Below are positions 4,934-59,147 of a stretch of 64,000 bases of DNA, in pieces. Source of the stretch: Candidatus Omnitrophota bacterium (GTDB lineage Bacteria; Omnitrophota; Gorgyraeia; 2-01-FULL-45-10). Made by a program: the position numbers and the translations under genes. Every line of letters starts with the position of its first letter. The first letter of the stretch is position 1. Under the pieces are notes generated by a model that was given only the letters and a program-made list of their open reading frames with translations, was not told where the DNA came from and made no database searches. The DNA lies in the NCBI GenBank assembly GCA_020057115.1, contig JAGVGJ010000001.1, positions 12,164 to 76,163 on the forward strand, written 5' to 3'.

Positions 4934-5608
4934 ATGGATCGTTTGATGGTTATTGTTGCGGATCCGGTAAGAGCGATGCTGATCAAAGTATGGGGCTATG
5001 TCCCTACTGTTGTTGCCGCCATATTGATCCTTGTCGTGGGCTGGTTCATAGCCAAGCTCGTAGAGACGATCGTCGCAAGAGTCCTTAAGATGATCCGTCT
5101 TGACATGGCAAGCGAGAAGGCCGGGATTTCCAATATGCTGGCTCAGGGCGACATAAAGGCTACTTTGTCAGAGTTGATCGGCGCGATCATATATTGGGTG
5201 GTCATATTGATAGTTATAGCCACCGCTATGAACGCCATGAACCTGACTATAGCAGCGGATATCCTCACCAGGCTAGTCGCATACGTACCTAACATACTTG
5301 GGGCGATATTCGTAATAGTTCTCGGATCATTGCTTGCTACATTCATTGCCTCTATAGTGCGCACCACCGCAGGCAATGCCGGAATAGATAATGCGAAGAC
5401 CCTCTCCGAAGTGACGAAGATCGTCATAGTGGTATTTGCCATTATAATGGCGATAGAGCAGCTCGGGATAGGGGTAGCGATAATCAATCTTGCTGTCAGC
5501 ATAGTCCTGGCATCCATAGGGCTTGCGATAGCGATAGCATTCGGCCTCGGCTGCAAGGATCTTGCGGGCAAGGCGATAGCCGATATGTTGGGCAAGATGA
5601 AGAGATAA
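4934..5608 (+). CDS. Polytopic membrane protein with repeated 'conserved TM helix' segments (MscS-associated type)
   Basis: 224 aa with several hydrophobic helices in a repeating pattern. A hairpin plus T-run terminator follows. Confidence 0.5.
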   Translation: MDRLMVIVADPVRAMLIKVWGYVPTVVAAILILVVGWFIAKLVETIVARVLKMIRLDMASEKAGISNMLAQGDIKATLSELIGAIIYWVVILIVIATAMNAMNLTIAADILTRLVAYVPNILGAIFVIVLGSLLATFIASIVRTTAGNAGIDNAKTLSEVTKIVIVVFAIIMAIEQLGIGVAIINLAVSIVLASIGLAIAIAFGLGCKDLAGKAIADMLGKMKR

Positions 5609-5630
5609 TAGATTTTATAGTATTGATAAT

Positions 5631-5665
5631 AAGGGGCGCTTCACTCGAAGCGCCCCTTATATTTT
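5631..5665 (+). terminator. Rho-independent terminator
   Basis: aaggggcgcttcactcgaagcgcccctt hairpin followed by atatttt. Confidence 0.7.
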
Positions 5666-5706
5666 GAGGTTAGCGTAAGGTATGAAAAAATTTAGTTTTT
5701 ACCCCC

Positions 5707-5734
5707 TTGTTTTTGTTCCGCTATCAGGTATAGT
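5707..5734 (+). promoter_or_regulatory. Candidate promoter (TTGTTT-16-TATAGT) for the riboswitch-containing transcript
   Basis: -35 at 5707-5712 and -10 at 5729-5734. Confidence 0.3.
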
Positions 5735-5762
5735 TATATTGTCGGAAGAAAAGCTCTTTATA

Positions 5763-5852
5763 AACTGATCAAAGGTAAACCCGGTGAAAGCCGGCGTCAC
5801 AAAACTATAGGGTCTAAATCTCTGGAGACAGGGACAAGACAGCCAGTTGCCG
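5763..5852 (+). promoter_or_regulatory. Candidate c-di-GMP-I (GEMM) riboswitch aptamer
   Basis: GGTAAAC then a ccggt-GAAA-gccgg hairpin (GNRA tetraloop), then CGTCACAAAAC, then GGGTCTAAAT (tetraloop-receptor-like), then GACAGCCAGTTGCC. This lines up with the GEMM-I consensus as recalled from memory, not from a run search: GGCAAACC-P1(GAAA)-GACGCAAAGCC...GGGUCUAA...AGCCnGnnGCC. Confidence 0.55.
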
Positions 5853-5885
5853 TTTAAGCTTACGTCAAAGCCTGGATTGAATATC

Positions 5886-5925
5886 GATCCCGATCTGCGT
5901 TCAAGACGTAGGTCGGGATTTTTTA
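5886..5925 (+). terminator. Intrinsic terminator; likely expression platform of the riboswitch
   Basis: 11-bp stem cccgatctgcg/cgtaggtcggg (two G-U pairs), loop ttcaaga, followed by attttttat. Confidence 0.6.
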
Positions 5926-5993
5926 TTGAGCAGATAATTTATGGAGCCCGAAGGGCGACGTAAAGTATAGGCCGAAGGCCGTCTGCGAAATAA

Positions 5994-6049
5994 TCCCGAA
6001 ATATACCGCTTAAAGGCACATAGTATGCAATACAAGATATATTTCGGGA
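5994..6049 (+). promoter_or_regulatory. 12-bp inverted repeat (TCCCGAAATATA ... TATATTTCGGGA, 32-bp spacer) upstream of the micro-ORF; candidate operator or leader hairpin
   Basis: Arms at 5994-6005 and 6038-6049. Ends about 20 nt before the ATG at 6071. Confidence 0.4.
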
Positions 6050-6070
6050 TATCACCATAAGGAGGGTTGT

Positions 6071-6172
6071 ATGGAATATAAATATGAACCAACGCAGCCG
6101 GAAGACGAAGGACAGTGCGATGAGTATTGTCCGTGCTGCGGTTATACGCAGTGCATATGCGGCAACGGATAG
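6071..6172 (+). CDS. Unannotated 33-aa Cys-rich micro-ORF (MEYKYEPTQPEDEGQCDEYCPCCGYTQCICGNG)
   Basis: Strong SD AAGGAGGG ending 4 nt before the ATG. Acidic N-terminal half and a C-terminal half with 6 Cys (CxxxCxCCxxxxCxC). Absent from the ORF track because it is under 60 aa. Confidence 0.45.
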   Translation: MEYKYEPTQPEDEGQCDEYCPCCGYTQCICGNG

Positions 6173-6199
6173 CATCATAAAATTTTCTTCGCCTTAGTT

Positions 6200-6400
6200 C
6201 GGCGCCCCACCCAATGGTAGGTCTGTCGCTTGACGTTCGTTCGGATTAGCCATCCTCACTCACTCCGGAAAAATTTTGATGGCCGGTCAACCCTGACTAT
6301 AAGCAAAACTATAGACAGGTTTGCCCGGCCTTTCTATATCGGCATAAAGTATCAAAATTTTTCAACGGCCGCTCCAGACCCACCATTGGGTTGGGCGCCG
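6200..6400. repeat. 26-bp terminal-inverted-repeat-bounded ~200-bp element with an internal 22-bp hairpin (MITE-like or structured RNA)
   Basis: cggcgccccacccaatggtaggtctg at 6200-6225 against cagacccaccattgggttgggcgccg at 6375-6400 (2 mismatches). Internal arms ggccggtcaaccctgactatag / ctatagacaggtttgcccggcc. Confidence 0.5.
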
Positions 6401-6579
6401 GCCTATGTCCTTATGGCAAGAACAAACCCCGAACCCAATTTAGCACATTGAAAATGTTAGGCCTTTTGGAAGTAGAAAAATGGTTATATTTAACAATTTT
6501 TTGATAATAAAAGGACCGAGGATGTTTGAGGCCTCCTCCGGAGGCCGAGTTCCGCAAGCCGCCGTAGTATTCACCAGGC

Positions 6580-6614
6580 GGCAGCCCCCGAAGGGGGCTG
6601 GTCCCCATTTTTCT
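6580..6614 (+). terminator. GC-rich hairpin plus T-run (terminator-like; possible 3' end of a small RNA)
   Basis: agcccccgaagggggct hairpin followed by ggtccccatttttc. A second hairpin, ggcctcctccggaggcc, lies just upstream. Confidence 0.35.
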
Positions 6615-6793
6615 ACTGAACAAAAGGCCGACCCTAGAGTTTAATTAGAGGGGGAACATTTTCAGTGATAAATTGGGTTCAGGGTTTGGGATATCTCGTA
6701 TAGAGTGCGGGATATCCCTACGTTCGCGTAAGATACCCCGCCTTTTTGGAACACAGGTATCTCGAGAGGCCCGCCTTAAGATGCGTGAAATTT

Positions 6794-6825
6794 TGGTTTC
6801 GAGCCGCATGCTTTTGTGTTAGAAT
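6794..6825 (+). promoter_or_regulatory. Candidate extended -10 promoter (TGtTAGAAT) for purH
   Basis: TG at 6817-6818 and TAGAAT at 6820-6825. RBS GGAGG and GTG start at 6850. Confidence 0.3.
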
Positions 6826-6849
6826 AGATGCCTAAATTGGAGGTAATTT

Positions 6850-8433
6850 GTGAAGGTAAGGCGCGCGCTTATAAGCGTTTCGGATAAGGCCGGACTTGAA
6901 GAGCTGGTCAAGGCATTGAATAAATTCAATGTCGAGATACTTTCAACGGGCGGGACCGCAAAGGCCATAAGGGCGCTTGATATACCGGTTAAGGATGTTT
7001 CGGAATATACCGGGTTCCCGGAGATGCTTGACGGAAGAGTAAAGACGCTTCATCCCAAGATACACGGCGGCCTATTGGCCCTAAGAGACTCTAAAGAGCA
7101 TATGGATACCGCCAAGAAGCATGATATCGGCATGATCGACATGGTCGTCGTCAATCTGTATCCATTCGAGAAAACCGTGGCAAAGCCAGGAGTGAAGCTC
7201 GAAGAGGCGATAGAGAATATAGATATAGGCGGGCCGTCCATGCTTAGGAGCGCGGCGAAGAATCACCGGTCTGTCTGCGTTATATGCGACCCGGCGGATT
7301 ACGGCAGGGTGATCGAAGAGCTGGAGAGGTCCGGCGGCAGCATGTCGGAAGCTCTTTTGACAGAGCTTGGGATCAAGGTGTTCGGCAGGACCGCAGAATA
7401 TGACGCGGCGATATATAATTATCTCACGAAAAATACGAGCCAGGGGCCAGGGGCCAGGGGCCAGGGTCCAGAAGAATTTCCAGAAGTACTGAGCCTGAGT
7501 TTCAAGAAGCTACAGGACTTAAGATACGGCGAGAATCCGCACCAGAAGGCCGCGTTCTATAGAGATGCCTCCATAAATGAATCGAGCGTAGCCGATTCCG
7601 TCCAGCTCCACGGAAAAGAGCTATCATTCAATAATATAATAGACCTTAATGCCGCGCTTGAGATCGTAAAAGAGTTCGACGAGCCGGCGGCCGCGATAAT
7701 AAAACACACAAACCCCTGCGGCGCAGCGACAGCAAAGACTTTAAAAGAAGCGTATCTCAATGCGCTCGACTGCGACCGCTTGAGCGCTTTTGGGAGCATA
7801 GTAGGGTTCAATAGAACCGTCGACATGGAACTTGCAAAAACGATACTGGAGGAGGCTGATTTCGTCGAATGCATGATCGCCCCGTCCTATGATGTAAAAG
7901 CCATCGAAGCGCTGAAGGTCAAAAAAAACCTGCGGCTTATCGAGGTGAAGAACTTTGCCGCAAAACCGTCCGGAAGCAATAAAGACATGAAGAAAGTCAC
8001 AGGCGGTCTTCTGGTGCAGGACAAGGATGCGGCGAGGATAAAGGAGCCCGATCTCAAGATAGTTACAAAGATCGCTCCCACGAAGGAAGAGATGCGCTCG
8101 CTCCTTTTCGGGTGGACCGTGGCAAAACATGTCAAGTCCAACGCGATAGTATTTTCCCAAGGCACTAAGACCATAGGCGTCGGCGCAGGCCAGATGTCGA
8201 GGGTCGACTCGGTGATGATAGCGGCAAAGAAAGCGGGATCCAGGGCCAAGGGCGCGACGCTGGCAAGCGACGCCTTCTTTCCGAAAGAGGATGGAGTTGA
8301 AGAGGCCGCCAGATCCGGCGTAAAAGCTATCATACAGCCCGGCGGGTCGATACGCGATAAAGAGGTCATCGCCTCAGCCGACAAGCTTGGCCTTGCGATG
8401 GTATTTACCGGCACCAGGCACTTCAAGCATTGA
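6850..8433 (+). CDS. purH: Bifunctional AICAR transformylase / IMP cyclohydrolase
   Basis: 527 aa with MGS-like and AICARFT domains (ISVSDKAGL..., TGGTAKA...). GTG start. Carries an in-frame GC-repeat segment at 7441-7470 (QGPGARGQGP). Confidence 0.95.
   Translation: MKVRRALISVSDKAGLEELVKALNKFNVEILSTGGTAKAIRALDIPVKDVSEYTGFPEMLDGRVKTLHPKIHGGLLALRDSKEHMDTAKKHDIGMIDMVVVNLYPFEKTVAKPGVKLEEAIENIDIGGPSMLRSAAKNHRSVCVICDPADYGRVIEELERSGGSMSEALLTELGIKVFGRTAEYDAAIYNYLTKNTSQGPGARGQGPEEFPEVLSLSFKKLQDLRYGENPHQKAAFYRDASINESSVADSVQLHGKELSFNNIIDLNAALEIVKEFDEPAAAIIKHTNPCGAATAKTLKEAYLNALDCDRLSAFGSIVGFNRTVDMELAKTILEEADFVECMIAPSYDVKAIEALKVKKNLRLIEVKNFAAKPSGSNKDMKKVTGGLLVQDKDAARIKEPDLKIVTKIAPTKEEMRSLLFGWTVAKHVKSNAIVFSQGTKTIGVGAGQMSRVDSVMIAAKKAGSRAKGATLASDAFFPKEDGVEEAARSGVKAIIQPGGSIRDKEVIASADKLGLAMVFTGTRHFKH
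7441..7470. repeat. GC-rich oligo-repeat (GGGGCCAGG x3 + GGGTCCAG) in-frame inside purH
   Basis: caggggccaggggccaggggccagggtccag, encoding a Gly/Pro/Gln-rich inter-domain linker. Confidence 0.8.
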
Positions 8434-9744: not shown

Positions 9745-11181
9745 ATGATCGATCGCAATAATACCGAAGATACTATAGCAGCGATATCGTCTCCTATCGG
9801 CGAGGGCGGGATAGGCATAGTCCGCCTGAGCGGTCCGGGAGCGCGCGATATCGCTGATAAGATATTCCTGTCTAAAATCGGCAAGAAACCGTCGACATTC
9901 AAATCACATACCATGCATTATGGCCATATCGTTTCCACCCCGGACCCCGGACCCCGGCCCCTGGAACCTGGAACCTGGACCCTGGACCCTAAGATCATCG
10001 ACGAAGTCCTCCTGACCGTTATGCGCGCCCCGAAGACATATACGAAAGAGGATATAGTCGAGATAAACTGCCATGGCGGCATCCAGGCGCTCGGAGATGT
10101 CCTGGACCTTTGTATCAAAAGGGGCGCGCGGGTAGCAGAGCCAGGCGAATTCACCAGGAGGGCATTCATTAACGGCAGGATAGACCTGGCGCAGGCGGAG
10201 GCAGTCATCGACACTATACGCGCAAAGACCGAAGGCTCCCTTTCGGTAGCCATGAGCCAGCTCGAAGGCGAGCTTTCAGGAAAAATAAACGCATTGCGGG
10301 ATAAGATCATAGGTATAGCCTCGCACGTCGAAGCATCGATAGATTTTCCGGAAGAAGAGCTGGATTTATTCACTGAAGAGACGCTCAAGAGAGTGGGCGA
10401 GGCATTGGTCGAGCTGAAGGGCCTTATAGACTCATCTCGTGAAGGCATGATATTCAGGGATGGCATCCTCGCAGTGATATGCGGCAAGCCCAATGCCGGC
10501 AAATCTAGCCTCATGAACCTCCTTCTTAAAAGGGACAGGGTGATAGTGACCCCGATACCGGGGACTACGCGCGATGCCGTGGAGGAGATGATAAATTTAA
10601 AAGGCATACCGATAAGGCTTGTCGATACCGCAGGGATAGCTGACACCAAAGATGTCATTGAAAAAGAAGGCATGAGGCGATCTAAAAACTATCTCGACAG
10701 GTCTGACGTCGCGCTTCTGGTGTTGGATGGCTCGACTGAGCTGGACAGGGAGGACCTGGATATAATAAAATTGGTAGAGAAAAAGAAAAAAGTTGTTATA
10801 ATAAACAAGACAGACCTGTCTCCCGCAATAAGTGCAAAAGATGTGAAGGCGTATTTTAAGGACGAGCATATAATCGAGATATCTGTCGAAAAGAGAAAGA
10901 ATATAGACGTCCTTGAAAAAGCGATCGTGGATCTGGTGTGGAGCGGCCGCGTCCATGATAAAGAGCATGCGATAGTCGCAAATACAAGGCATAAGGCGCT
11001 CATCGAAAAGGCCTATAATAATATGGGCGCCGTCAAAAAGGCGATGGATAAAGGCTCCTGGCCGGAACTTGTTTCGATAGACCTCAAAGAAGCGGTCTTT
11101 AACCTTGGTCTGGTGGTCGGGAAATCAGTGTCGGACGATATATTGAATAAGATATTCGAACAATTCTGCATAGGAAAGTAG
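9745..11181 (+). CDS. mnmE: tRNA modification GTPase MnmE/TrmE
   Basis: 478 aa with G-domain GKPNAGKSSL and C-terminal CIGK. In-frame GC-repeat segment at 9947-9990 (PDPGPRPLEPGTWTLDP). Confidence 0.9.
   Translation: MIDRNNTEDTIAAISSPIGEGGIGIVRLSGPGARDIADKIFLSKIGKKPSTFKSHTMHYGHIVSTPDPGPRPLEPGTWTLDPKIIDEVLLTVMRAPKTYTKEDIVEINCHGGIQALGDVLDLCIKRGARVAEPGEFTRRAFINGRIDLAQAEAVIDTIRAKTEGSLSVAMSQLEGELSGKINALRDKIIGIASHVEASIDFPEEELDLFTEETLKRVGEALVELKGLIDSSREGMIFRDGILAVICGKPNAGKSSLMNLLLKRDRVIVTPIPGTTRDAVEEMINLKGIPIRLVDTAGIADTKDVIEKEGMRRSKNYLDRSDVALLVLDGSTELDREDLDIIKLVEKKKKVVIINKTDLSPAISAKDVKAYFKDEHIIEISVEKRKNIDVLEKAIVDLVWSGRVHDKEHAIVANTRHKALIEKAYNNMGAVKKAMDKGSWPELVSIDLKEAVFNLGLVVGKSVSDDILNKIFEQFCIGK
9947..9990. 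repeat. GC-rich oligo-repeat (opposite orientation: CCGGACCCC / CCTGGACCC units) in-frame inside mnmE
   Basis: ccccggaccccggaccccggcccctggaacctggaacctggaccctggaccct. Confidence 0.8.
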
Positions 11182-15729: not shown

Positions 15730-15759
15730 GGGTCCAGGGGCCAGGGTCAAGGGTCCAGG
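15730..15759. repeat. GC-rich oligo-repeat, intergenic between mlaE and mlaF
   Basis: gggtccaggggccagggtcaagggtccagg. Confidence 0.8.
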
Positions 15760-19145: not shown

Positions 19146-20306
19146 ATGGGCGCAAAAAAGAGCACGAGAGACAATGCGGCTAGAGTTCTTTTACACGTGA
19201 GCAGGATAATGAGTTCATCTCCAGAACTTGATACGGTGAATGACGCCATACTGCGGGAGTCAAGAAAGGCGCTTGGGGCTGACCACGTGTCATTGTTCCT
19301 CCTCGACCAGGAGACAGGATACCTTGACCTTATCAAGGCCGAGGGGTTTACCGCAGACCAGATAGACAACCTGAAGCTTCTCGGCAGCTGGGAGGTCATA
19401 AACGAACAGCTTGTGGAGAAGAAAAAGATCGTCGTGGCCAATGATGTCCGGAAGAGCCAGTTATTCAAGGATAAGACGCTGCCATTCTCTTCCGAGAGGC
19501 TTCCGATCCACTCATTTCTTGCCGCGCCGCTGGTAAAGGACGGCGCGACTGTCGGGGCCCTGATAGTAAGCAATAAAAAGCGGTCGAACCACCATTTTAC
19601 GAAACATGACGCGGATTTCTTGAGCACCCTCTCAAATTACATCGCCATAGCGCTTATCAGCGCCAAGCTCTACATAAAGCTGAAAGAGCTCTTCATAACC
19701 ACCGTAAAGTCCCTCGTAAAGGCTGTCGACGCCAAGGACCAGTATACTAGTGGCCATTCGGAGAGGGTGATGAAATACGCCTACACGATCGGCAAGGAGA
19801 TGGGGCTCGGCCACGATACGATGGAGAACCTGAAATTATCGAGCCTCCTGCATGATATAGGCAAGCTCGGCATAAAAGAGAGCGTTCTCTCCAAGCCCGG
19901 AAAGCTCTCCGCCCGCGAGAGGCGCCAGGTGAGCCATCATCCTGCGATCGGAGTAAAGATAGTGGATTCCATAGCCGATTCCCACAAGATAATACGGGGC
20001 ATACTCGAGCATCACGAACACTTTGACGGGAAGGGTTACCCGAACGGGCTTAAGGCAGGCGAGATATCGCTGGAAGGGCGGATAATAGCCGTTGCCGATA
20101 CATTCGACGCCATGACCACAGCCAGGCCGTACAACAGGAAATATTCGCCCGAAGAAGCGCGCCTTATGGTGAAGAAGGGCTCGGGGACGCAGTTCGATCC
20201 CCATGTGGTGCGGGTTTTTATGAGGTCATATTCGAAACATCCGGAAGTCTGGCAGGCTCTGGCATGGGCGGGACACGGCCTGGCCGAGGGCGTTGACATT
20301 TGGTAG
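19146..20306 (+). CDS. GAF-domain HD-GYP phosphodiesterase (c-di-GMP)
   Basis: HDIGKLGI and HHEHFDGKGYPNGL motifs. Confidence 0.8.
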   Translation: MGAKKSTRDNAARVLLHVSRIMSSSPELDTVNDAILRESRKALGADHVSLFLLDQETGYLDLIKAEGFTADQIDNLKLLGSWEVINEQLVEKKKIVVANDVRKSQLFKDKTLPFSSERLPIHSFLAAPLVKDGATVGALIVSNKKRSNHHFTKHDADFLSTLSNYIAIALISAKLYIKLKELFITTVKSLVKAVDAKDQYTSGHSERVMKYAYTIGKEMGLGHDTMENLKLSSLLHDIGKLGIKESVLSKPGKLSARERRQVSHHPAIGVKIVDSIADSHKIIRGILEHHEHFDGKGYPNGLKAGEISLEGRIIAVADTFDAMTTARPYNRKYSPEEARLMVKKGSGTQFDPHVVRVFMRSYSKHPEVWQALAWAGHGLAEGVDIW

Positions 20307-20332: not shown

Positions 20333-20406
20333 GGGGCTGTGGTGAAGAGGGATCACATCACAATGGCATTGTGAGGTCACGAGTTCGATTCTCGTCAGCT
20401 CCACCA
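20333..20406 (+). tRNA. tRNA-Ala (anticodon GGC)
   Basis: Hand-folded cloverleaf. Acceptor ggggctg/cagctcc with the G3-U70 wobble (AlaRS identity element), anticodon loop aTGGCat, T-arm acgag-ttcgatt-ctcgt, encoded CCA. Confidence 0.8.
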
Positions 20407-20465: not shown

Positions 20466-20552
20466 GCTGGAGTGGCGGAACTGGCATACGCGCCGGTCTC
20501 AAAAACCGGTAGTCGCAAGGCTGTGTGGGTTCAAGTCCCACCTCCAGCACCA
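20466..20552 (+). tRNA. tRNA-Leu (anticodon CAA), type II with a long variable arm
   Basis: Acceptor gctggag/ctccagc, anticodon stem ccggt/accgg with loop cTCAAaa, long variable arm, T-arm gtggg-ttcaagt-cccac, encoded CCA. Confidence 0.85.
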
Positions 20553-26836: not shown

Positions 26837-27208
26837 TTGGACGCAAAATCTGGTAATCGCGTGGATGAGAGAAGAAGGTATCCAAGAGCGGAAACCAATC
26901 TGCCCATCAGCTACAAAAACTTAAGAAGCGTAGGCGAGGCCCCGGTCAGCTCTTCGACCCGGGACATCAGTGAGGGCGGAGCCCGCTTCAAAACGAACGA
27001 ATTTATATCGCTTGCCTGTCGTCTCGTGTTGGAGATATCGATACCCACGTCTCCGAAACCCGTAAAGGCGATATCCAAGGTTGCGTGGATCAAGAAGCTT
27101 CCGACCGGTGATAATTACGAGATAGGGAACCATTTCCTGGAGATCACCAAGGAAGACAAGTCACGCATCATGGATTACATGAATAATGCGGTCAAGGAAA
27201 TCCTCTAA
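26837..27208 (+). CDS. PilZ-domain c-di-GMP-binding protein
   Basis: RRYPRAE (RxxxR) and DISEGGARF (DxSxGG) motifs. TTG start with SD AAGGAGGG. Confidence 0.65.
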   Translation: MDAKSGNRVDERRRYPRAETNLPISYKNLRSVGEAPVSSSTRDISEGGARFKTNEFISLACRLVLEISIPTSPKPVKAISKVAWIKKLPTGDNYEIGNHFLEITKEDKSRIMDYMNNAVKEIL

Positions 27209-33417: not shown

Positions 33418-34540
33418 ATGATACAAGAGCTGAATAATGACATAAAACTGAGCGAAGAGAAGCTGAAAGAGCTCAGAGGTTATCTTTGACGTCGATAACA
33501 AGCTAAAGAGGATAACTGTCCTTGAGGAAGAGATCTCCAGGCCAGATTTTTGGAGCAATGAAACACGTTCCAAAGAGGTCATCAGAGAGCTCAAATACTT
33601 AAAAGCCATAGCAGAGCCGTTCTCAAAGCTCACAAGTGATCTTAAAGATATAAAAGAGATAGTCTCCATAGCCGAATCCGGCGACGCGGAATCACTGAAA
33701 CACTTCAAAGAAGAGCTTTCCAGGATAAAACTCAAGATAGATGATATAGAGTTCAGAAGCCTTCTGGGAGAGGAAGCGGATAGTTGTAATGCAATAATGA
33801 GTATCAATGCCGGAGCCGGGGGCACCGAATCATGCGATTGGGCGGGTATGTTGCTGAGGATGTATACCAAGTGGGCCGAGGCAAGAGGATGCGAGATCGA
33901 AAGGATAGACCAGCTCGCAGGTGAAGAGGCGGGCATAAAGAATGTCACGGTGCTCATAAAAGGCGATTATGCTTACGGGTACCTCAAGAGCGAGTCAGGC
34001 GTCCATCGTCTTGTCAGGATCTCGCCTTTCGATTCAAATAAGAGGCGCCACACTTCATTTGCTTCCGTTGATGTCATACCCGAAGTGTCCGACGATATCC
34101 AGATAGACGTAAAGGAACAGGATCTAAAGATAGACACTTATCGCGCCGGAGGCAAGGGCGGCCAGCATGTCAATAAGACCGACTCCGCTGTCAGGATAAC
34201 GCATATTCCTTCAGGCATAGTCGTCCAGTGCCAGAACGAAAGATCGCAGGGCAAGAACAAGGCGATGGCGTTTAAGCTGTTGAGGGCGAAACTTTATGAG
34301 AAAGAGCGTCTTGCCAAAGAGAAGCTGGTGGCTAGCGCTTACGATTCAAAGAAGGAGATCGCCTGGGGCAGCCAGATAAGGTCTTATGTGCTCCATCCGT
34401 ATTCCATGGTAAAGGACCACAGGACAGGCTGTGAGACAGGGAATGCCGAGGCGGTCCTTGAAGGGAAGATAGACGCGTTCATCGAGGCATATTTAAAAAG
34501 GGGCAAGGGTCCGGGGTCTGGGGTCCAGGAGAAGGGGTAG
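33418..34540 (+). CDS. prfB: Peptide chain release factor 2 with a programmed +1 ribosomal frameshift: join(33418..33486, 33488..34540)
   Basis: Frame 0 encodes [23 protein letters not shown] and ends at the canonical AGAGG-UAU-CUU-UGA-C frameshift site (SD-like plus CUU UGA C). The +1 frame continues DVDNKLK... through the SPF and GGQ motifs. The GC-repeat at 34501-34530 encodes the C-terminal [12 protein letters not shown]. Confidence 0.85.
34501..34530. repeat. GC-rich oligo-repeat at the 3' end of prfB (in-frame)
   Basis: gggcaagggtccggggtctggggtccagga. Confidence 0.75.
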
Positions 34541-45530: not shown

Positions 45531-45586
45531 TTTTATGTCACCTCCTTTCAAATCCTTTAATTTGGGGATTTTGCACCCCTACTATA

Positions 45587-45616
45587 TAAGACGCTCAAAA
45601 TGCCCAAATTGTTGCA
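45587..45616 (-). promoter_or_regulatory. ECF-sigma-type promoter (TGCAAC-N17-CGTCTTA), copy 1, upstream of spoVG-yraN-comM
   Basis: Minus-strand -35 TGCAAC (plus 45611-45616) and -10 CGTCTTA (plus 45587-45593). Part of a 43-bp repeat also found at 47193-47240. Confidence 0.5.
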
Positions 45617-45654
45617 AATTATTTTAAAATATTTTTCGGATGTGCGCTTCTTCC

Positions 45655-45794
45655 CCCTCTCGGGATGGGTAAGGTGTCTTTCCGCGAACGCTCCATTCTC
45701 GGAGGGAATGTCGCTCGGAAGGCCGCAATTTTCGGTGAAAAATCGCGGCCTTCGACGTCGCTCCAAGACACCTTACCCATCCCTCGGGGGCCCC
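45655..45794. repeat. Palindromic repeat element, copy C (same orientation as A)
   Basis: cgggatgggtaaggtgtc...cttcgacgtcgctccaagacaccttacccatccctcg, about 90% identical to copy A. Confidence 0.8.
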
Positions 45795-45871
45795 GCATCG
45801 AGGACCGAAAAAGTAGGAGGGTGGAACTGGAGGGGGAGATTTACTTCTTGAATTATTTCACGGACCGTACT

Positions 45872-46711
45872 ATGATATTTCGTGATATGGGGATATTTGA
45901 GAAAGCGCAGATAGATTTTCTCACCGGGTTCTTCTTAAGGGAATCCTTCGGCCAGTTCCTCGAAAAGGCTATGCGCGAGGCCACGGCCACAAGCGGCGTA
46001 GTTACGCTTGCGCTAGTTGACCTTGACCACTTCAAAAATTTCAACGATAAATTCGGCCATGACTTCGGCGACGAGATCCTGAAGTATTCCGCCAGCACCA
46101 TCAGGCTCACTATGGACGAGAACCAGACCTATTTCTTCCGTTACGGAGGCGATGAATTTATCGTGGTCTTTGCAGGCAAGACGCAGAAAGAGGCCCTCCA
46201 GCTGTTAAAATACTGCAGGCATAACCTCCTCCACAGGCCTTTCCTCTTAAAGAATAAATTCCAGAAGATCACCATGAGTATCGGCGTCGCAAGCTTCCCG
46301 CATGACGCCCAGACCGTGGAGGACCTGATCGCGAAGGCTGATAATGCCATGTACTATTCCAAACGCCACGGACGCAACCGCATAACAATGTGGAGCTCTA
46401 TAAGCCATCTCAAGGCGCGAAATTATTTTATCCTGTTCGGCACCCTGGCCATCATGGTGCTTTCCACTTTCGTAGCGGCATATGTGCCGCCGATCAAAGA
46501 AAGCATAATGGCCTTTATCGGTAACATCAAAGAGCTCCGAAAGGTCTCTTTTGACAAGATCGTGCTTAAGAGCGGCGCTGTGTTTGAAGGCAGGATAGTG
46601 AACGAGGATGCCACTACTATATTTTTGCAATTGAACCTAAAAGAGGGGGAAGGGTCGCTCAAGCTTGACAAGTCTAAGGTGTCAAAGATAATACGCGCCA
46701 AATCTCGTTAG
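45872..46711 (+). CDS. GGDEF-domain diguanylate cyclase with a C-terminal TM helix and ~90-aa tail
   Basis: RYGGDEF motif. Start set at ATG 45872 because the track ORF extends upstream into the palindromic repeat. Promoter TTGAAT-17-TATGAT immediately upstream, so possibly leaderless. Confidence 0.7.
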   Translation: MIFRDMGIFEKAQIDFLTGFFLRESFGQFLEKAMREATATSGVVTLALVDLDHFKNFNDKFGHDFGDEILKYSASTIRLTMDENQTYFFRYGGDEFIVVFAGKTQKEALQLLKYCRHNLLHRPFLLKNKFQKITMSIGVASFPHDAQTVEDLIAKADNAMYYSKRHGRNRITMWSSISHLKARNYFILFGTLAIMVLSTFVAAYVPPIKESIMAFIGNIKELRKVSFDKIVLKSGAVFEGRIVNEDATTIFLQLNLKEGEGSLKLDKSKVSKIIRAKSR

Positions 46712-46739
46712 GGTCAAGGGGCCAGGGTCCGGGGTCCAG
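46711..46739. repeat. GC-rich oligo-repeat immediately after the GGDEF gene stop
   Basis: gggtcaaggggccagggtccggggtccag. Confidence 0.8.
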
Positions 46740-48070: not shown

Positions 48071-51000
48071 ATGGCAGGACCCTACAGCAGGCTATTCGAA
48101 TTCACCAGAGACGGCATATACAGCTACACGTTTGCCGACGGGAAGATACTATCCGCGAACCACGGTTTTATCAGGATCCTTGACCTCGACTGCAAGCCAC
48201 CCGAAGTCGAAGGAAGGCTCCTTAAAGACGTGATGACCTATGTCGAAAAGGAGGGTACGGTCCGGAGGCTCCTGGAAGAGAAAGGAGAACTTCATAACTA
48301 TGAATACCACTTTAAGACGCTGAAGGGCGAGGACAGGTGGGTCATCTACGATTCATTCCTTTCCGTGGATCCGGTGACCGGCGAGAGAGTGGTAGAGACG
48401 ATAGTAAAAGATATAACCGACCGTAAGAAGAAGGAAGATGAGGCCAGGCGGTACCGCGCCCATCTCGAGGAGCTTGTAAAGGAGCGCATAGAAGAGTTGA
48501 AAGCCCTCAATGAACAGTTGAGGCGCGAAGTCGCGGAGCGCAAGGAGGCGGAGGAGAGGCTTGCCAAGATAAACAGCTGCTTCCTGAAATTCGGTTCCGA
48601 CTCGCTTGAGAATATAAAGCTGTTGACAGCCCTCTTGGGCGAAACTATGGGCGCGACATGCGCCCTTTATAACCGGCTGGAAGAGGGCATGCTATGCTCT
48701 ATAGGGCAATGGAACACCCCTTCCGATTATAACGCTATCGATAAACCCGAAGGGCATTTATGCTATGACGTTATAAGGCACGGTACCGACATACCTTTCA
48801 TAGTAAATAATCTTCCGGGAACGCCTTATGCGGCTACAGATTCCAATGTAGCCAGATATAACCTGCGCACTTATGTCGGCGTGGCTGTAAAGTCCGGCGG
48901 CAGGTACATAGGCTCGCTTTGCGCTGTTTATCAGAAAGACGTCATCCTTACGGAAGACGATAAGAAGCTGATAGGGTTGATCGCCACAGCCGTGGGCATA
49001 GAGGAAGAGAGATTGAGGATGGAGGGCGACATACTTGAGTCGAAAGAGTATCTCTCCAAGATCATAAATTCTATCGGCGATCCCGTGTTCGTAAAAGACA
49101 GGCAGCATCGCCTGATACTGGTAAATGACGCCGAATGCCGTCTTGCAGGCCATTTGAGAGAAGATGTTACAGGAAAGACGGATTATGACTTCTTCCCGAA
49201 AGAGCAGGTCGACATATTCTGGAAGAAGGATGAGATGGTGTTCGAGACCGGCGAAGAGAATATAAACGAGGAGACGATCACCGATGCCCAAGGCGTGACT
49301 CACACTATCATCACGAAGAAGACGCGCTATATCGACCCGGAGGGTAATAAATTCATAGTCGGCATCATAAGGGATATAACAGACCGCAAGGCGACCGAAG
49401 AACAACTCCAACAGAACTACGATATCCAGAAAGCCGTAAACTCTCTCCTCAACCTTTCGCTAAGAGACATGCCTTTAGAGGAATTCCTTAAAAATACGCT
49501 CGACCTCATAATGTCCATCCCCAGGCTTTCGCTTGAATCGCGCGGCGGCATATTTCTGACGGAAGATCATTCTGATACCCTGAGGCTAAAGGTGCATAAC
49601 GGCCTTACCGAGCAGATACAGAAGGCATGCGGGAGCGTCCCATTCGGCAAATGTCTCTGCGGCAAGGCGGCGCTGACAAAAAAGACGCAGTTTGCCGCAT
49701 CTATCGACGAGCGTCATGAGACAACTTATGAAGGCATCATCCCTCACGGCCATTACTGCGTTCCGGTGCTATGGGCAGACAAGGTCCTCGGAGTAATAAA
49801 CTTTTACTTGAAAGAGGGGCATCCCTATAAAAAGAGTGAAGAAGATTTTCTGGTTGCCGTAGCTAACACCCTGGCCGGCGTCATAGAGCGCAAGCGCGTG
49901 GAGGAAGAACTAAAGAAGAGCGAGGCGAGTCTCGCGGAAGCCCAGAGGATAGCGCGCCTGGGGAACTGGGAGTGGGATATAAAGGCCAATAGCATAAAAT
50001 GGTCGGCCGAGGTATACCGCATATTCGGGAGAGCGCCGTCTGATTTTAACGGCACGCTCGAAGCATTCCTGGAATATATTCATCCCGCCGACAGAGGATT
50101 CGTTAAAGAAGCGTTGGATGACGCGCTGCACAAGCAAGAGAACTACTCCATAGACCACAGCATCCTGCTGCCGAACGCAGTGGAGAGGATAGTCCACGAG
50201 CAGGGAGAGATCACCTATGACGGGAACGGCGAGCCCGTGCGCATGGTAGGGACTGTCAATGACATAACCGAACGAAAGATCATGGAGGGTGAGCTCAGGA
50301 AGCATCGTGACCACCTTGAGGACTTGGTCAAGCAGCGCGCCGCCCAGATCATCGAGGTCAATGAGAGCCTCCAGCGCGAAGTCGCCGAGCGTAAGCGCGT
50401 CGAAGAGGCGTTGAGGGAGTCGGGGGAGAATTACAAGACCCTGTTCGAGCATTCTCCTATAGCGCTCTTCCAGGAAGATTGCTCCGGCATGAAGAAGTAT
50501 ATAGACAGTCTTAAGGCGACCAGCGGCGCTGACCTGAAGAAATATTTTGAAGACCATCCCGAAGTCTTAAAGGAGTGCATAGAAGCGATAAAGATAGCAG
50601 ATGCCAATAAGCAGGCCTTAATGCTTTTCGACGCGAGGGATAAAGAAGAGCTTTACAGGGCGGTCAAAAATATACTCATCGCCGATGCTTATAGCGATTT
50701 TGCGGAGGCGATCGTAGCTTCTAGCGAAGGAAAGTATGCTCTCGAACACGAGACCAGCATACATACGCTTACCGGAGCCAAGAAATATTGCACTGTCAAG
50801 ATATCGACCGTTGCGGGAAGCGAGACGACATGGGCGAAAGTATTGATATCTATGGTCGATATAACGGAGCGCAAGCTTGTAGAGGAAGCGCTCGAGATAT
50901 CGGAGGCAAACTACCGCGCCATATTCGATACGGCCAATGACGCCATATTCGTCTTTGATATTAAGACAGGGGTTATAATCGACGCCAACAGGAAGGGCTG

Positions 51001-52867
51001 CGAGATGTACTGCTATTCCAGGGACGAGATACGCTCTCTGGGCATAGACATGCTAAGTTCAGGCGAGCATATCTATACGAAAGACGGCGCGGACAGCTGG
51101 ATACAGAGAGCCTCTAACGGAGAGCCGCAGATAGTAGAGTGGCTTTCGAAAGATAAGGCCGGCCGCCTATTCTGGGTCGAGATAAACCTGCGCAGGGCCA
51201 TAGTCGGCTCCAAATACTGCCTTCTTGCGGTAGTGCGCGACATAACTGAGCGCAAAGAGTCCGAAGAGAAGCTGAGAGAGAGCGATCTCAGATTCAGGAA
51301 AGCCGTATTCGATGCGACCTTCCCGATAATGATCCATTCGGAAGACGGCGACGTCATGCTTCTCAATAAGGCCTGGACGGAATTATCCGGTTATACCCAG
51401 GAAGACATACCGACCACCTCTGTTTGGGCGGAGAAAGCCTATGGCAGTAAAAAGGCCATCGTAAAAGCCGATATCGACAAGTTGTACAAGCTGGATGAGA
51501 GGGTCAAGGAGGGCGAGTATGTCATAACCGCCAAGACCGGCGAAAAGAGGGTATGGGATTTCAGCGCCGCCCCTCTCGGGGCCCTTCCTAACGGCAAGCG
51601 TATCGTCATGTCTATGGCGATGGATATCACCGAGCGTAAGGGCGCGGAGAATCAGATCAAGGAGCTTAACAGGGAGCTCCTTAAGACGAATAACATGCTT
51701 AAGCAGCTGGCACTCAAGGATTCCCATACCGGGCTTTACGGCCACAGGTATCTGGCGGAGGCGATCCTCAAGGAATTTTCCAGGGCCAAGAGAGAGGCCA
51801 CGCCACTCTCAGTCATAATGCTCGATATCGATTATTTTAAATCGATAAACGATGTCTACGGCCATCAGTTCGGCGATATTGTTTTAAAGCAGTTCGCTGC
51901 GCACCTGAAAAAGGCGGTGCGGATATACGACATAGTCATACGTTACGGCGGAGAGGAGTTCATAATAATATCTCCGGGTTCGGACAGGGCGGGCGCCCTG
52001 GTGCTCGCCAGGAGGATATTGAATACTGTGAGCCTGGCCCGTTTTGGCGACAAAGAGCATAGCGTGAAAATGAAGATGAGCGCGGGCGCGGTCTCTTACC
52101 CGGAGGACCGGGCCGTGAAGGCCATGGACCTCGTTAATTTCGTCGACAAGATACTGAATAAGGCCAAGGAAGAAGGCGGCAACAGGGTATGCTCGTCTGT
52201 CGACATGAAGAGGCCCAAGGCATCCGTTACCATGGAAGAGGAAGAGGATATAACGGACGTAAAGCTCCTCAAAGAAAAGATAGAGAAGCTTACCAAGCGC
52301 GGCAACCAGAGCCTTATCGAGGCCATATTCGCCTTCGCGAAGACCATAGAAGTTAAGGATAATTATACGGGAGAGCATGTCGAAAAGGCCGTCCATTACG
52401 CGACCGAGATAGCCAAGGAGCTCAATCTTTCAAAGAACGAGATAGAGCTGATAAAGAAGGCCGCGGCGCTTCATGATCTCGGCAAGGTGGGGATAAGCGA
52501 TAAGATACTGCGCAAGAAGTCAAAGCTTACCGAAAAAGAGTTTGAAGAGATAAAGAGGCATTCGCAGATAGGTGTCGATATATTGAGGCCCGTCCACTTC
52601 ATGCATGACATAATACCCCTGATCCTCCACCATCATGAAAGATGGGACGGTAAAGGATATCCCGACAAGCTTAGAGGCGACGAGATACCGATCGGCGCGC
52701 GCATAATCTCCGTGTCAGACGCCTATGACGCTCTTACGTCGAACAGGCCTTACCGTAAAGCATACCGCAAGAACAAAGCCATCGAGATCATAAAGAGGGC
52801 TTCCGGGACGATGTATGACCCCAGGATCATAAATGCCTTCTTCAAAGTCCTGAAAGATGGAAAATAG
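48071..52867 (+). CDS. Large multi-domain c-di-GMP signalling protein: multiple PAS domains, GAF, coiled coils, GGDEF, HD-GYP
   Basis: 1598 aa with repeated PAS signatures, RYGGEEF (GGDEF) and HDLGKVGI...HHHERWDGKGYPD (HD-GYP). Confidence 0.85.
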   Translation: MAGPYSRLFEFTRDGIYSYTFADGKILSANHGFIRILDLDCKPPEVEGRLLKDVMTYVEKEGTVRRLLEEKGELHNYEYHFKTLKGEDRWVIYDSFLSVDPVTGERVVETIVKDITDRKKKEDEARRYRAHLEELVKERIEELKALNEQLRREVAERKEAEERLAKINSCFLKFGSDSLENIKLLTALLGETMGATCALYNRLEEGMLCSIGQWNTPSDYNAIDKPEGHLCYDVIRHGTDIPFIVNNLPGTPYAATDSNVARYNLRTYVGVAVKSGGRYIGSLCAVYQKDVILTEDDKKLIGLIATAVGIEEERLRMEGDILESKEYLSKIINSIGDPVFVKDRQHRLILVNDAECRLAGHLREDVTGKTDYDFFPKEQVDIFWKKDEMVFETGEENINEETITDAQGVTHTIITKKTRYIDPEGNKFIVGIIRDITDRKATEEQLQQNYDIQKAVNSLLNLSLRDMPLEEFLKNTLDLIMSIPRLSLESRGGIFLTEDHSDTLRLKVHNGLTEQIQKACGSVPFGKCLCGKAALTKKTQFAASIDERHETTYEGIIPHGHYCVPVLWADKVLGVINFYLKEGHPYKKSEEDFLVAVANTLAGVIERKRVEEELKKSEASLAEAQRIARLGNWEWDIKANSIKWSAEVYRIFGRAPSDFNGTLEAFLEYIHPADRGFVKEALDDALHKQENYSIDHSILLPNAVERIVHEQGEITYDGNGEPVRMVGTVNDITERKIMEGELRKHRDHLEDLVKQRAAQIIEVNESLQREVAERKRVEEALRESGENYKTLFEHSPIALFQEDCSGMKKYIDSLKATSGADLKKYFEDHPEVLKECIEAIKIADANKQALMLFDARDKEELYRAVKNILIADAYSDFAEAIVASSEGKYALEHETSIHTLTGAKKYCTVKISTVAGSETTWAKVLISMVDITERKLVEEALEISEANYRAIFDTANDAIFVFDIKTGVIIDANRKGCEMYCYSRDEIRSLGIDMLSSGEHIYTKDGADSWIQRASNGEPQIVEWLSKDKAGRLFWVEINLRRAIVGSKYCLLAVVRDITERKESEEKLRESDLRFRKAVFDATFPIMIHSEDGDVMLLNKAWTELSGYTQEDIPTTSVWAEKAYGSKKAIVKADIDKLYKLDERVKEGEYVITAKTGEKRVWDFSAAPLGALPNGKRIVMSMAMDITERKGAENQIKELNRELLKTNNMLKQLALKDSHTGLYGHRYLAEAILKEFSRAKREATPLSVIMLDIDYFKSINDVYGHQFGDIVLKQFAAHLKKAVRIYDIVIRYGGEEFIIISPGSDRAGALVLARRILNTVSLARFGDKEHSVKMKMSAGAVSYPEDRAVKAMDLVNFVDKILNKAKEEGGNRVCSSVDMKRPKASVTMEEEEDITDVKLLKEKIEKLTKRGNQSLIEAIFAFAKTIEVKDNYTGEHVEKAVHYATEIAKELNLSKNEIELIKKAAALHDLGKVGISDKILRKKSKLTEKEFEEIKRHSQIGVDILRPVHFMHDIIPLILHHHERWDGKGYPDKLRGDEIPIGARIISVSDAYDALTSNRPYRKAYRKNKAIEIIKRASGTMYDPRIINAFFKVLKDGK

Positions 52868-52905
52868 CGGCCTTCGACGTCGCTCCAGGGTGCTCTACCC
52901 CGCAT
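52866..52905. repeat. Truncated copy of the palindromic repeat element
   Basis: gcggccttcgacgtcgctccagg matches the internal right half of copies A/C. Confidence 0.5.
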
Positions 52906-55628: not shown

Positions 55629-56292
55629 CGCATTAGTCGCTGCAAGAGGATTATCCAAGACCTATACGAACGGCGCTAAACAGGTCAGGGCCGTGAATGG
55701 GATCGATCTCGAGATAGGAAAGGGCGAGGCGCTTGCCATAGTGGGCCCGTCGGGCGCGGGGAAGTCCACGCTCATGCATCTATTGGGCGGGCTTGATATG
55801 CCGACGCACGGGAAGGTCTTATTCGATAATGTCGATATCTACTCGCTCTCTGACAAGAACCGCGCGAAGGTGCGCAATTCGCGCGTGGGTTTCGTCTTCC
55901 AGTTCTACCATCTTCTGCCGGAGTTCACGGCTCTTGAGAATGTGATGCTTCCCGGGATGATACAAGGAGACGCTTCCATGCTTAAGGAACGGTCCGCCGG
56001 GCTTTTAAAAGCGGTCGGCCTTGAGAATCGTATGGCCCACAGGCCGGGAGAGCTTTCCGGAGGGGAGTCCCAAAGGGTGGCCATAGCAAGGGCGCTCATA
56101 AACGAACCTGCTATAATCCTTTGCGATGAACCTACGGGAAATCTTGATTCCAAGACCAGCCAGGCCATTTATGAGCTATTGATAGAATTGAAGGATAAGA
56201 AAGGCATGACCATAGTAGTTGTGACGCACGACGAAAAGCTTGCGGCAAAGATGGATCGCCAGATACATATGAGAGATGGCAAGCTGGTGTAG
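55621..56292 (+). CDS. lolD: Lipoprotein-releasing system ATP-binding protein
   Basis: Walker A GPSGAGKST, LSGGESQR, Walker B. Confidence 0.9.
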   Translation: MSNALVAARGLSKTYTNGAKQVRAVNGIDLEIGKGEALAIVGPSGAGKSTLMHLLGGLDMPTHGKVLFDNVDIYSLSDKNRAKVRNSRVGFVFQFYHLLPEFTALENVMLPGMIQGDASMLKERSAGLLKAVGLENRMAHRPGELSGGESQRVAIARALINEPAIILCDEPTGNLDSKTSQAIYELLIELKDKKGMTIVVVTHDEKLAAKMDRQIHMRDGKLV

Positions 56293-56324
56293 GGGGTAGG
56301 GGGAAAACAGGATTTACGGAGTAC

Positions 56325-56351
56325 GGCCGGAGCGATCCGGCCTTCTTTTTT
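56325..56351 (+). terminator. Rho-independent terminator after lolD
   Basis: ggccgga-gcga-tccggcc hairpin followed by ttcttttttcc. Confidence 0.65.
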
Positions 56352-56390
56352 CCAGCTTCCCCTTTAAATTTTTCGGCCTATGGATGCCAT

Positions 56391-56515
56391 TGAGGGGTAA
56401 GGTGTCCTGGAGCGACGTCGAAGGGCGCAATCTTTCAGAGAAGATTGCGCCCTTCCGAGCGAACTTTCCTCTGGAAAGAGAGCGTTCGCGCAAGGACACC
56501 TTACCCCTCAAGGGC
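56391..56515. repeat. Palindromic repeat element, copy D (same orientation as B)
   Basis: gaggggtaaggtgtcctggagcgacgtcgaag...ccgagcgaactttcc...caaggacaccttacccctc. Confidence 0.8.
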
Positions 56516-56595
56516 TTCAAGGAGCTTCCGAAAAATTATCCCTCATTCCTATTTGACATAATATGCTTTATTATATATACTTATAATACTTAATT

Positions 56596-59079: not shown

Positions 59080-59147
59080 GGTCAAGAGTCCAGGGTCAAG
59101 GGTCCAGAAAATTTTACTGGACCCAGGCCCCTGGCCCCTGGACCCTG
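59079..59147. repeat. GC-rich oligo-repeat in inverted pair (hairpin) between mcsB and clpC
   Basis: gggtcaagagtccagggtcaagggtccag ... ctggacccaggcccctggcccctggaccctg. Confidence 0.8.

Follow-up and report, generated by a model that had tools for sequence, protein, structure and literature searches.

A probable c-di-GMP-I riboswitch cassette for a four-cysteine mini-protein in an Omnitrophota bacterium

What does the structured RNA encoded upstream of purH in an Omnitrophota bacterium sense, and which gene does it serve? The question is raised by a 64-kb stretch of DNA, here called the window, whose positions are used for all coordinates below unless another locus is named. In this window a gap of about 1.2 kb extends from a gene for a small membrane protein (4934-5608; Pfam MS_channel_1st_1) to purH (6850-8433), and an earlier note on the same DNA had described this gap as intergenic and had placed in it a promoter, a c-di-GMP-I (GEMM-I) riboswitch and an intrinsic terminator forming a classic OFF-switch. 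The description as intergenic cannot be upheld, since the gap holds a conserved open reading frame (ORF) of 33 codons that had been missed. We propose, with a probability of roughly 0.8, that positions 5707-6172 make up a self-contained plus-strand cassette which responds to cyclic di-GMP (c-di-GMP) and controls this mini-ORF by way of transcription termination.

The assignment of the aptamer stems from a covariance-model search (cmscan) of the whole window, both strands included, with the complete set of 4227 Rfam families, in which RF01051 (c-di-GMP-I) matched positions 5764-5854 of the plus strand over its full length (model positions 1-87 of 87) with a score of 64.6 bits against a gathering threshold of 35 and an E-value of 2.3e-10. 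The only other matches at gathering level in the window are two tRNAs, a permissive Rfam scan of 5550-7000 (E-values up to 10) gave nothing further that is credible, and c-di-GMP-II (RF01786), which was to be checked as well, was found neither in 5550-7000 at E-values up to 10 nor at its gathering score anywhere in the window. The model alignment places the P1 hairpin at 5775-5800, with a GAAA tetraloop at 5786-5789, and the P2 hairpin at 5803-5848, with an apical helix formed by 5819-5822 and 5831-5834. Canonical pairs are formed at 20 of the 21 model pairs that can be scored, another pair coincides with a gap, and a C-C mismatch (5780/5795) is found at the base of P1b. The motifs from which the riboswitch had originally been recognized are all present on the plus strand where they had been reported, namely GGTAAAC (5774-5780), ccggt-GAAA-gccgg (5781-5794), CGTCACAAAAC (5795-5805), GGGTCTAAAT (5810-5819) and GACAGCCAGTTGCC (5838-5851). 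We can conclude that the aptamer is a genuine member of the c-di-GMP-I (GEMM-I) riboswitches, as had been claimed, and that c-di-GMP is its expected ligand. The genomic surroundings are in agreement with this notion, as the proteins that had been listed as c-di-GMP related are all correctly identified according to their domain matches: a GAF domain and an HD_5 domain of HD-GYP type are encoded at 19146-20306, PilZ at 26837-27208, GGDEF within 45665-46711, and PAS/GAF, GGDEF and HD_5 domains together at 48071-52867, so that the genome encodes domains for synthesis, breakdown and binding of c-di-GMP.

A homologous cassette was found on a 4.8-kb contig (L086) from the Sequence Read Archive (SRA) run SRR21359604, which stems from an Omnitrophota genome with a purH 79% identical to that of the window. 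The order of elements on L086 is a promoter, a leader of the AGCTCTTTAT type, an RF01051 aptamer scoring 59.7 bits, a nearly invariant linker, a terminator, a Shine-Dalgarno (SD) sequence and an ORF for a protein of 34 residues (P0122), and the arrangement of promoter, aptamer, terminator, SD sequence and ORF, in this order and on one strand, is thus confirmed in two genomes. Between the two leaders, two P2 pairs change from U-A to C-G and are hence compensatory, although covariation drawn from just two sequences is thin, and further compensation is seen in the terminator. Both aptamers carry the GAAA tetraloop. The tetraloop receptor that had also been suggested is less well preserved, for the segment CUAAA...CAAGAC of the window merely resembles the consensus receptor CUAAg...cuAuGac, and on L086 P2 is truncated and the receptor segment wholly absent.

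Transcription of the cassette is expected to begin at the promoter-like element TTGTTT-16 nt-TATAGT on the plus strand (5707-5734; hexamers at 5707-5712 and 5729-5734), which is present as described before and from which a start near 5741-5744 is predicted. The element fails a sigma-70 consensus scan, its -35 hexamer agreeing with TTGACA in 3 of 6 positions, but hexamers and spacing are kept among relatives, with TTGTTT-16-TATATT on L086 (4439-4466) and TTGATT-16-TATATT on a third contig, L095 (1997-2024). The sequence of the spacer has diverged, its length of 16 nucleotides (nt) being retained. A separate promoter is indeed needed, because the upstream membrane-protein gene ends in a terminator of its own at 5629-5660. 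The leader motif AGCTCTTTAT (5752-5761, plus strand) is the same or nearly the same in the window, L086 and L095, and pairing is possible between its CUUU and the AAAG (5771-5774) that precedes the aptamer core. On L095 the promoter and the leader AGCTCTTTA (1997-2090) follow the membrane-protein gene in the same orientation as in the window. This locus was considered as a third aptamer and not accepted as such: a possible aptamer (AGGAAACCATTGG...) is cut off by the contig end after about 25 nt, and RF01051 gives no score there at E-values up to 10.

The mini-ORF itself (6071-6172, plus strand) encodes 33 residues, MEYKYEPTQPEDEGQCDEYCPCCGYTQCICGNG, with an acidic N-terminal half and a C-terminal motif of four cysteines (CPxCG-x4-CxCG) within the pattern CPxCGYxQCxCGNG. 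It is preceded by the SD sequence AAGGAGGG (6059-6066, plus strand), which ends 4 nt before the ATG and has AAAGGAGGG as its counterpart on L086; an SD sequence of AAGGAGG type is likewise found before the upstream gene at 4934. When 1.84 billion representative proteins were searched exhaustively with phmmer, one true homologue was returned, which is P0122, MDYIDDRIDQPEDDNQSDEYCPVCGYSQCTCGNG, the very protein encoded behind the same riboswitch on L086 (E-value 1.2e-6, 73% identity over the matched stretch). The two share the pattern QPED..Q.DEYCPxCGYxQCxCGNG with four invariant cysteines, and when their codons are compared, stop included, 16 are identical, 6 differ synonymously and 12 non-synonymously, 9 of these 12 lying within the first 16 codons. 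Taken together, the SD sequences in both genomes, the coding-type differences and the position of the homologue behind the same riboswitch argue that the mini-ORF is a real and conserved gene and the target of the riboswitch.

Searches for further copies gave no confirmed member. P0122 is a singleton in protein clusters, exact look-ups of the mini-protein, the MS-channel protein and purH gave no hits, with the mini-protein being absent from about 15 billion proteins, and a query extended by 7 in-frame upstream codons gave no candidate with three common 5-residue words. The pattern CPxCG-x3-6-CxCG does not occur again in the six-frame translation of 1.05 Mb of fetched sequence, a scan of metagenome contigs with the peptide pattern gave no confirmed match, and viral contigs gave no match to the cassette by either DNA or peptide pattern. 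A scan with the linker pattern TTGCCGNNNNAGCTTACGTCAAAG resulted in 3 chance matches within coding sequence, none of them with an aptamer. One more protein in the phmmer output, P0121 (472 residues, E-value 8.5e-8), was rejected as spurious, as here a repeated PEDKVQC segment is aligned to acidic residues 2-16 of the query.

The four cysteines probably bind metal. A profile search of the PDB gave local matches of 7-8 residues, EYCPxCGY, to both rubredoxin-type knuckles of rubrerythrin (E-value 0.0045), and it is this stretch that the mini-protein has in common with the C-terminal knuckles of that enzyme, its four cysteines being available for one metal ion. It differs from rubredoxin-type and zinc-ribbon domains in that the whole protein is only 33 residues long and in that the second knuckle, which follows 4 residues after the first, is CxCG and thus has CxC rather than CxxC. 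The resemblance to rubredoxin is one of motif and not of family membership. Small zinc-finger micro-proteins with CPxCG motifs are found in Haloarchaea, and the mini-protein may be likened to these.

If the mini-ORF is accepted as a gene, it should nevertheless be asked whether it is what the riboswitch regulates, since the cassette of the window has the same direction as purH, lies 678 nt upstream of the purH start and is not followed by a canonical terminator immediately after the mini-ORF stop, all of which would suit a function in controlling purH, folC and mnmE, and thereby purine and folate metabolism and tRNA modification, by read-through, with the small ORF being incidental. Such a function is made very unlikely by the fact that the cassette on L086, though adjoining purH, points away from it, and it is for this reason that we take the mini-ORF rather than purH to be the target. 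In addition, purH has an extended -10 promoter of its own (TGT TAGAAT at 6817-6825, plus strand), and the same TGnTAnAAT element precedes purH in L081, L084 and L091, which lack the riboswitch. With L086 divergent and purH of the window retaining the promoter of riboswitch-less relatives, the mini-ORF is the sole gene consistently found downstream of the aptamer. About 520 nt of extreme hairpins and a terminator-like site (6593-6606) furthermore lie between the mini-ORF and purH, and RF01051 is absent from another ten purH loci, most of them on Omnitrophota metagenome-assembled genomes (MAGs; L001-L009 and L021), as well as from the five syntenic loci L081-L085 and from L091. The aptamer as a general purH leader was rejected on account of its absence from L001-L009, L021 and L081-L085. 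It may also be argued that the regulated product is a non-coding RNA, either the structured region 5925-6720 or a small RNA (sRNA) released at the terminator, and that the ORF is left untranslated. Short terminated riboswitch transcripts are known to act as sRNAs, as exemplified by EutX/Rli55 under the control of B12 riboswitches, and the RNA downstream is highly structured, with folding z-scores of -5 for 5926-6180 and -13 to -15 for 6175-6720. This structured RNA is however wholly missing from L086, where the SD sequence directly follows the terminator, and the giant hairpins within it fold as well on one strand as on the other and look like further palindromic tracts between the genes of this genome. 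An untranslated ORF is likewise in poor agreement with the optimal SD sequences of both genomes, the synonymous third-position changes and the invariant C-terminus with its four cysteines, and we consider a non-coding product very unlikely.

As to the ligand, an aptamer of this fold might sense 3'3'-cyclic GMP-AMP (cGAMP), as the GEMM-Ib riboswitches do, or some other dinucleotide. The fold is common to GEMM-I and GEMM-Ib, which were at first not kept apart in annotation (PMC9262584), and other families of this Rfam clan gave two overlapping matches that scored lower and were suppressed in favor of RF01051. The two classes can be told apart at a single position, since G20 of the Vc2 aptamer reads the first guanine (G-alpha) of c-di-GMP while C92 pairs with G-beta, since cGAMP-type GEMM-Ib aptamers have A at the position equivalent to G20 (A14 in Gs1761), and since wild-type Vc2, with its G20, discriminates against cGAMP (PMC6140456). 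In the model alignment the equivalent of G20 is G5774, and L086 has a G here too, so that the A of GEMM-Ib is seen in neither genome; the equivalent of C92 is contained in UUGCC (5847-5851), and A5801, which follows GUCAC, corresponds to A47, the intercalating nucleotide of Vc2. The guanine at this position therefore indicates an aptamer of the c-di-GMP type and not of the cGAMP type. With RF01051 being the best-scoring member of its clan and with GGDEF, HD-GYP-type and PilZ domains encoded nearby, a specificity for cGAMP or another dinucleotide seems very improbable.

How, then, would a c-di-GMP aptamer control the mini-ORF? That a terminator lies downstream of the aptamer had been claimed before and was found independently by a pattern scan, which gave a 16-bp stem with 7 G-C pairs and a 3-nt loop at 5886-5920 on the plus strand and a T-run (TTTTAT) after it, the terminator as a whole being placed at 5886-5924. 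The duplex of its arms has a predicted energy of -25.5 kcal/mol, the folded terminator one of -24.8 kcal/mol in the window and -17.0 kcal/mol on L086, and between the two terminators one pair has changed from G-C to A-U, which is compensatory, and another from G-U to A-U by substitution on a single side. Between aptamer and terminator the consensus fold of window and L086 contains a further hairpin of 26 nt, GUUUA.GCUU-ACGUCA-AAGC.UGGAU (5852-5877, plus strand), which has 10 uninterrupted pairs on L086, and the aptamer, this linker hairpin and the terminator constitute three modules without overlap. From this architecture, which points to transcriptional attenuation, we infer the following course of events: c-di-GMP would bind to the aptamer of the nascent leader, its binding would set the fraction of transcripts that end at 5886-5924 as opposed to reading on into the mini-ORF, and the cellular level of c-di-GMP would in this way be translated into an amount of mini-protein.

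The linker merits special attention in this respect. The window and L086 have 33 consecutive identical bases at 5839-5871, comprising the 3' strand of the aptamer and the linker, in an alignment with a mean column identity of 75% and with clear divergence in the promoter spacer and in P2. The linker segment AGCUUACGUCA shows complementarity to the upper part of the terminator 3' arm (-13.3 kcal/mol in one genome and -13.4 kcal/mol in the other), and the UGGAU of the linker can choose between GUUUA in the lower stem of the linker hairpin and AUCC at the base of the terminator 5' arm. These pairings would allow an antiterminator of decoy type and an ON response to the ligand, and the linker, being conserved beyond what is expected of a spacer, suggests an expression platform with a logic different from those of Cd1 and pilM, the two GEMM platforms that have been studied in detail.

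A number of observations nonetheless weigh against the cassette as proposed. A convincing antiterminator was not found, whether by searching for upstream duplexes with the terminator 5' arm, by co-transcriptional snapshots, by constrained folds in which the aptamer was enforced or the terminator blocked, or by forcing the linker pairing in both genomes. In particular, no competitive pairing was found between the aptamer 3' side and the terminator 5' arm, from which an antiterminator might have formed; the best complement to this arm is an apical segment of P2 (5822-5835; -11.8 kcal/mol), which is missing on L086. Folds without the terminator are 16-19 kcal/mol less stable regardless of whether the aptamer is enforced, and forcing the linker onto the terminator 3' arm gives folds that are at least 10 kcal/mol worse in both genomes. 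With the terminator dominant and lacking a competitive alternative, switching would have to rest on kinetics or tertiary structure. The non-overlapping, Cd1-like topology would suit the classic OFF-switch of the earlier note, but no antiterminator was found to go with it and the terminator is ahead by 16-19 kcal/mol with or without the aptamer; the two signs of control are perhaps about equally probable, the topology giving a slight edge to OFF. It should also be mentioned that the terminator and the SD sequence of the window are 134 nt of structured RNA apart, that the complete cassette is found in only two cases, to which L095 adds a promoter and leader, and that the mini-protein has neither a Pfam match (E-values up to 0.01) nor a meaningful NCBIfam match (E-values up to 10) and is modelled by AlphaFold2, from an alignment of 2 sequences, with low confidence (predicted local distance difference test, pLDDT, 55; predicted template modelling score, pTM, 0.18).

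The RNA between terminator and SD sequence is a plus-strand insert of about 134 nt (5925-6058) with hairpins at 5945-5957, 5969-5981 and 5993-6050, the last of which has a perfect stem of 13 bp, and with a folding z-score of -5.0 to -5.4. It is specific to the lineage of the window, as L086 has no such insert and the SD sequence there comes directly after the T-run. The 3' arm of its last hairpin (6033-6050) resembles a diverged copy of the terminator 3' arm (5902-5919).

Compared to known systems, the RNA resembles Vc2 of Vibrio cholerae and RF01051 in its full-length match to the model, its two hairpins, the GAAA tetraloop of P1, the equivalents of G20, A47 and C92, its position in a 5' leader and its occurrence in a genome with GGDEF, HD-GYP and PilZ domains. 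It deviates in having GUCAC in place of the consensus GACGC, in the C-C mismatch of P1b and in a receptor that is altered in the window and missing on L086, and its target is a mini-protein of 33 residues instead of the usual genes for motility, pili, adhesins or signalling. In Cd1, the flgB leader of Clostridioides difficile, an aptamer and a separate terminator are joined by a spacer and can coexist, and the RNA is an OFF-switch (Landgraf et al., PMC9262584), a topology shared by the present leader. Cd1 has however an antiterminator, formed by the P1 3' strand and the terminator 5' arm, and no equivalent complementarity was found here; unlike in Cd1, the spacer is an invariant hairpin, the loop and 5' strand of which are complementary to the terminator 3' arm, possibly with the logic of an ON-switch. 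The GEMM-Ib riboswitches of Geobacter (Gs1761, pilM) have the same fold and belong to the same Rfam clan, but carry A where the present aptamers have G, and the pilM terminator overlaps the aptamer, making the two mutually exclusive and the RNA an ON-switch (PMC9262584), which is not the case here.

The RNA as such adds little, because GEMM-I is among the best-characterized classes of riboswitches. What appears to be new is the Omnitrophota host, the unannotated target with its four cysteines, so far known from two genomes, and the linker with its unusual degree of conservation, and in the collection of papers searched there was none joining a c-di-GMP-I riboswitch with Omnitrophica. The cassette would imply that c-di-GMP is sensed at the riboswitch level in this uncultivated phylum, the physiology of which is largely deduced, and it offers a first functional handle on a conserved mini-protein overlooked by gene callers, namely membership of the c-di-GMP regulon. 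More tentatively, and we regard this as a speculative possibility that is rather more doubtful than not, the cassette may be an unrecognized output arm of c-di-GMP signalling, in which a metal-binding micro-protein of about 33 residues, gated by the riboswitch, serves as a small factor for regulation or sequestration and is carried on an invertible or mobile unit, with the linker being a new decoy-type platform of GEMM-I.

The distribution of the cassette bears on its possible mobility. L086 shares its last 30 bases with L090, a contig from the same sample that encodes ribonucleotide reductase and the membrane protein (L086 4775-4818; L090 3520-3568), and 18 of these 30 nt, the last ones, form a perfect palindrome, CGGAGGTTTAAACCTCCG, which is probably a bidirectional terminator where the assembly broke. 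The proteins of both contigs are equally diverged from those of the window (79-83% identity), and the simplest reading of the two contigs would be that they stem from a single genome, where the membrane-protein gene and the mini-ORF are both directed towards the palindrome, the cassette thus being inverted relative to the window. L081 and L084 have the gene order ribonucleotide reductase, membrane protein, gap, purH, folC and mnmE and no aptamer, L083 has no aptamer and a different gene after the gap, and in L091-L094, the closest relatives by membrane-protein identity (81%), the gap is merely 274 nt. Judged from these few loci, the cassette seems patchy among close relatives and appears to occupy the same intergenic slot in either orientation. 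Wider searches lead to the same phylum, as purH has its best matches in species-representative genomes at 57-63% identity, mostly in Omnitrophota MAGs, and every named homologue of the membrane protein comes from Omnitrophota.

When the gaps of L081 (6675-7288) and L084 (6663-7151) are compared, several common segments are found in opposite orientation (for instance gap positions 79-112 versus 411-378), which suggests that the palindrome-rich DNA from the membrane-protein gene to purH has undergone an inversion between these two loci, much as the cassette seems to be inverted between the window and L086.

In the window, the DNA from the mini-ORF to the purH promoter is taken up by giant palindromic hairpins, one at 6195-6405 with arms of 31 nt and nested repeats, one at 6423-6688 with arms of 24 nt and nested repeats, and a third at 6688-6718. 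Together (6195-6718) they have folding z-scores of -13.3 on the plus and -14.8 on the minus strand, while coding controls range from -1.4 to +0.4. An Rfam search of the region at E-values up to 10 gave just spurious miRNA-like matches, and no second copy is found within the window. The hairpins were considered as a part of the riboswitch unit and rejected, being absent from L086, where the mini-ORF is followed by a short palindromic terminator and no giant hairpins, and folding equally on both strands. They look like palindromic intergenic DNA typical of the lineage and lie outside the cassette; they may be an element resembling miniature inverted-repeat transposable elements (MITEs), an insulator, a terminator or an RNA.

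Hyper-structured intergenic DNA is general in this Omnitrophota lineage. Other such tracts of the window are found at 1570-2200 (z-score -14.9), 45560-45880 and 56280-56600 (z-score -10.8), and gap tracts of the relatives (L081 6740-7215, L084 6715-7075 and L083 4205-4420) have z-scores of -6.5 to -9.7 and sequences unrelated to the window. A hairpin of about 140 nt, with inverted arms of 33 nt separated by 70 nt, recurs in either orientation, with at least 4-5 copies of 75-91% identity, namely at 1594-1734, 45654-45794 and 56352-56516, inverted at 1958-2066 and partially at 52858-52904. Where the GGDEF ORF is mechanically extended at its 5' end, it runs into the copy at 45654-45794. The repeat may be an element similar to MITEs or to repetitive extragenic palindromic (REP) sequences, or a repeated structured RNA. 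Upstream of ribonucleotide reductase, the relatives have small genes for 63-67 residues matching Pfam MamI (PF26391; L081 3154-3345, L083 377-580, L084 3188-3379 and L090 89-280), and the equivalent site in the window (about 1570-2560) is occupied by repeated hairpin elements.

Heptad repeats of GGGNCCA, with 3-4 units and the capacity to form G-quadruplexes, occur at six sites of the window: 7443-7466 (plus strand, in purH), 9938-9961 (minus strand, in mnmE), 15730-15753, 34500-34523, 46711-46734 (plus strand) and 59122-59145 (minus strand). Those in purH and mnmE are in frame and encode insertions rich in Gly and Pro, and several sites are found at gene ends. With a non-heptad motif at 59282-59304 included, the window contains 7 G-quadruplex motifs against about 1.5 expected from shuffled sequences. 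The two tRNA genes that make up the remaining Rfam matches (RF00005) are both on the plus strand, at 20333-20403 (57.6 bits) and 20466-20549 (58.4 bits), and the latter has a long variable arm.

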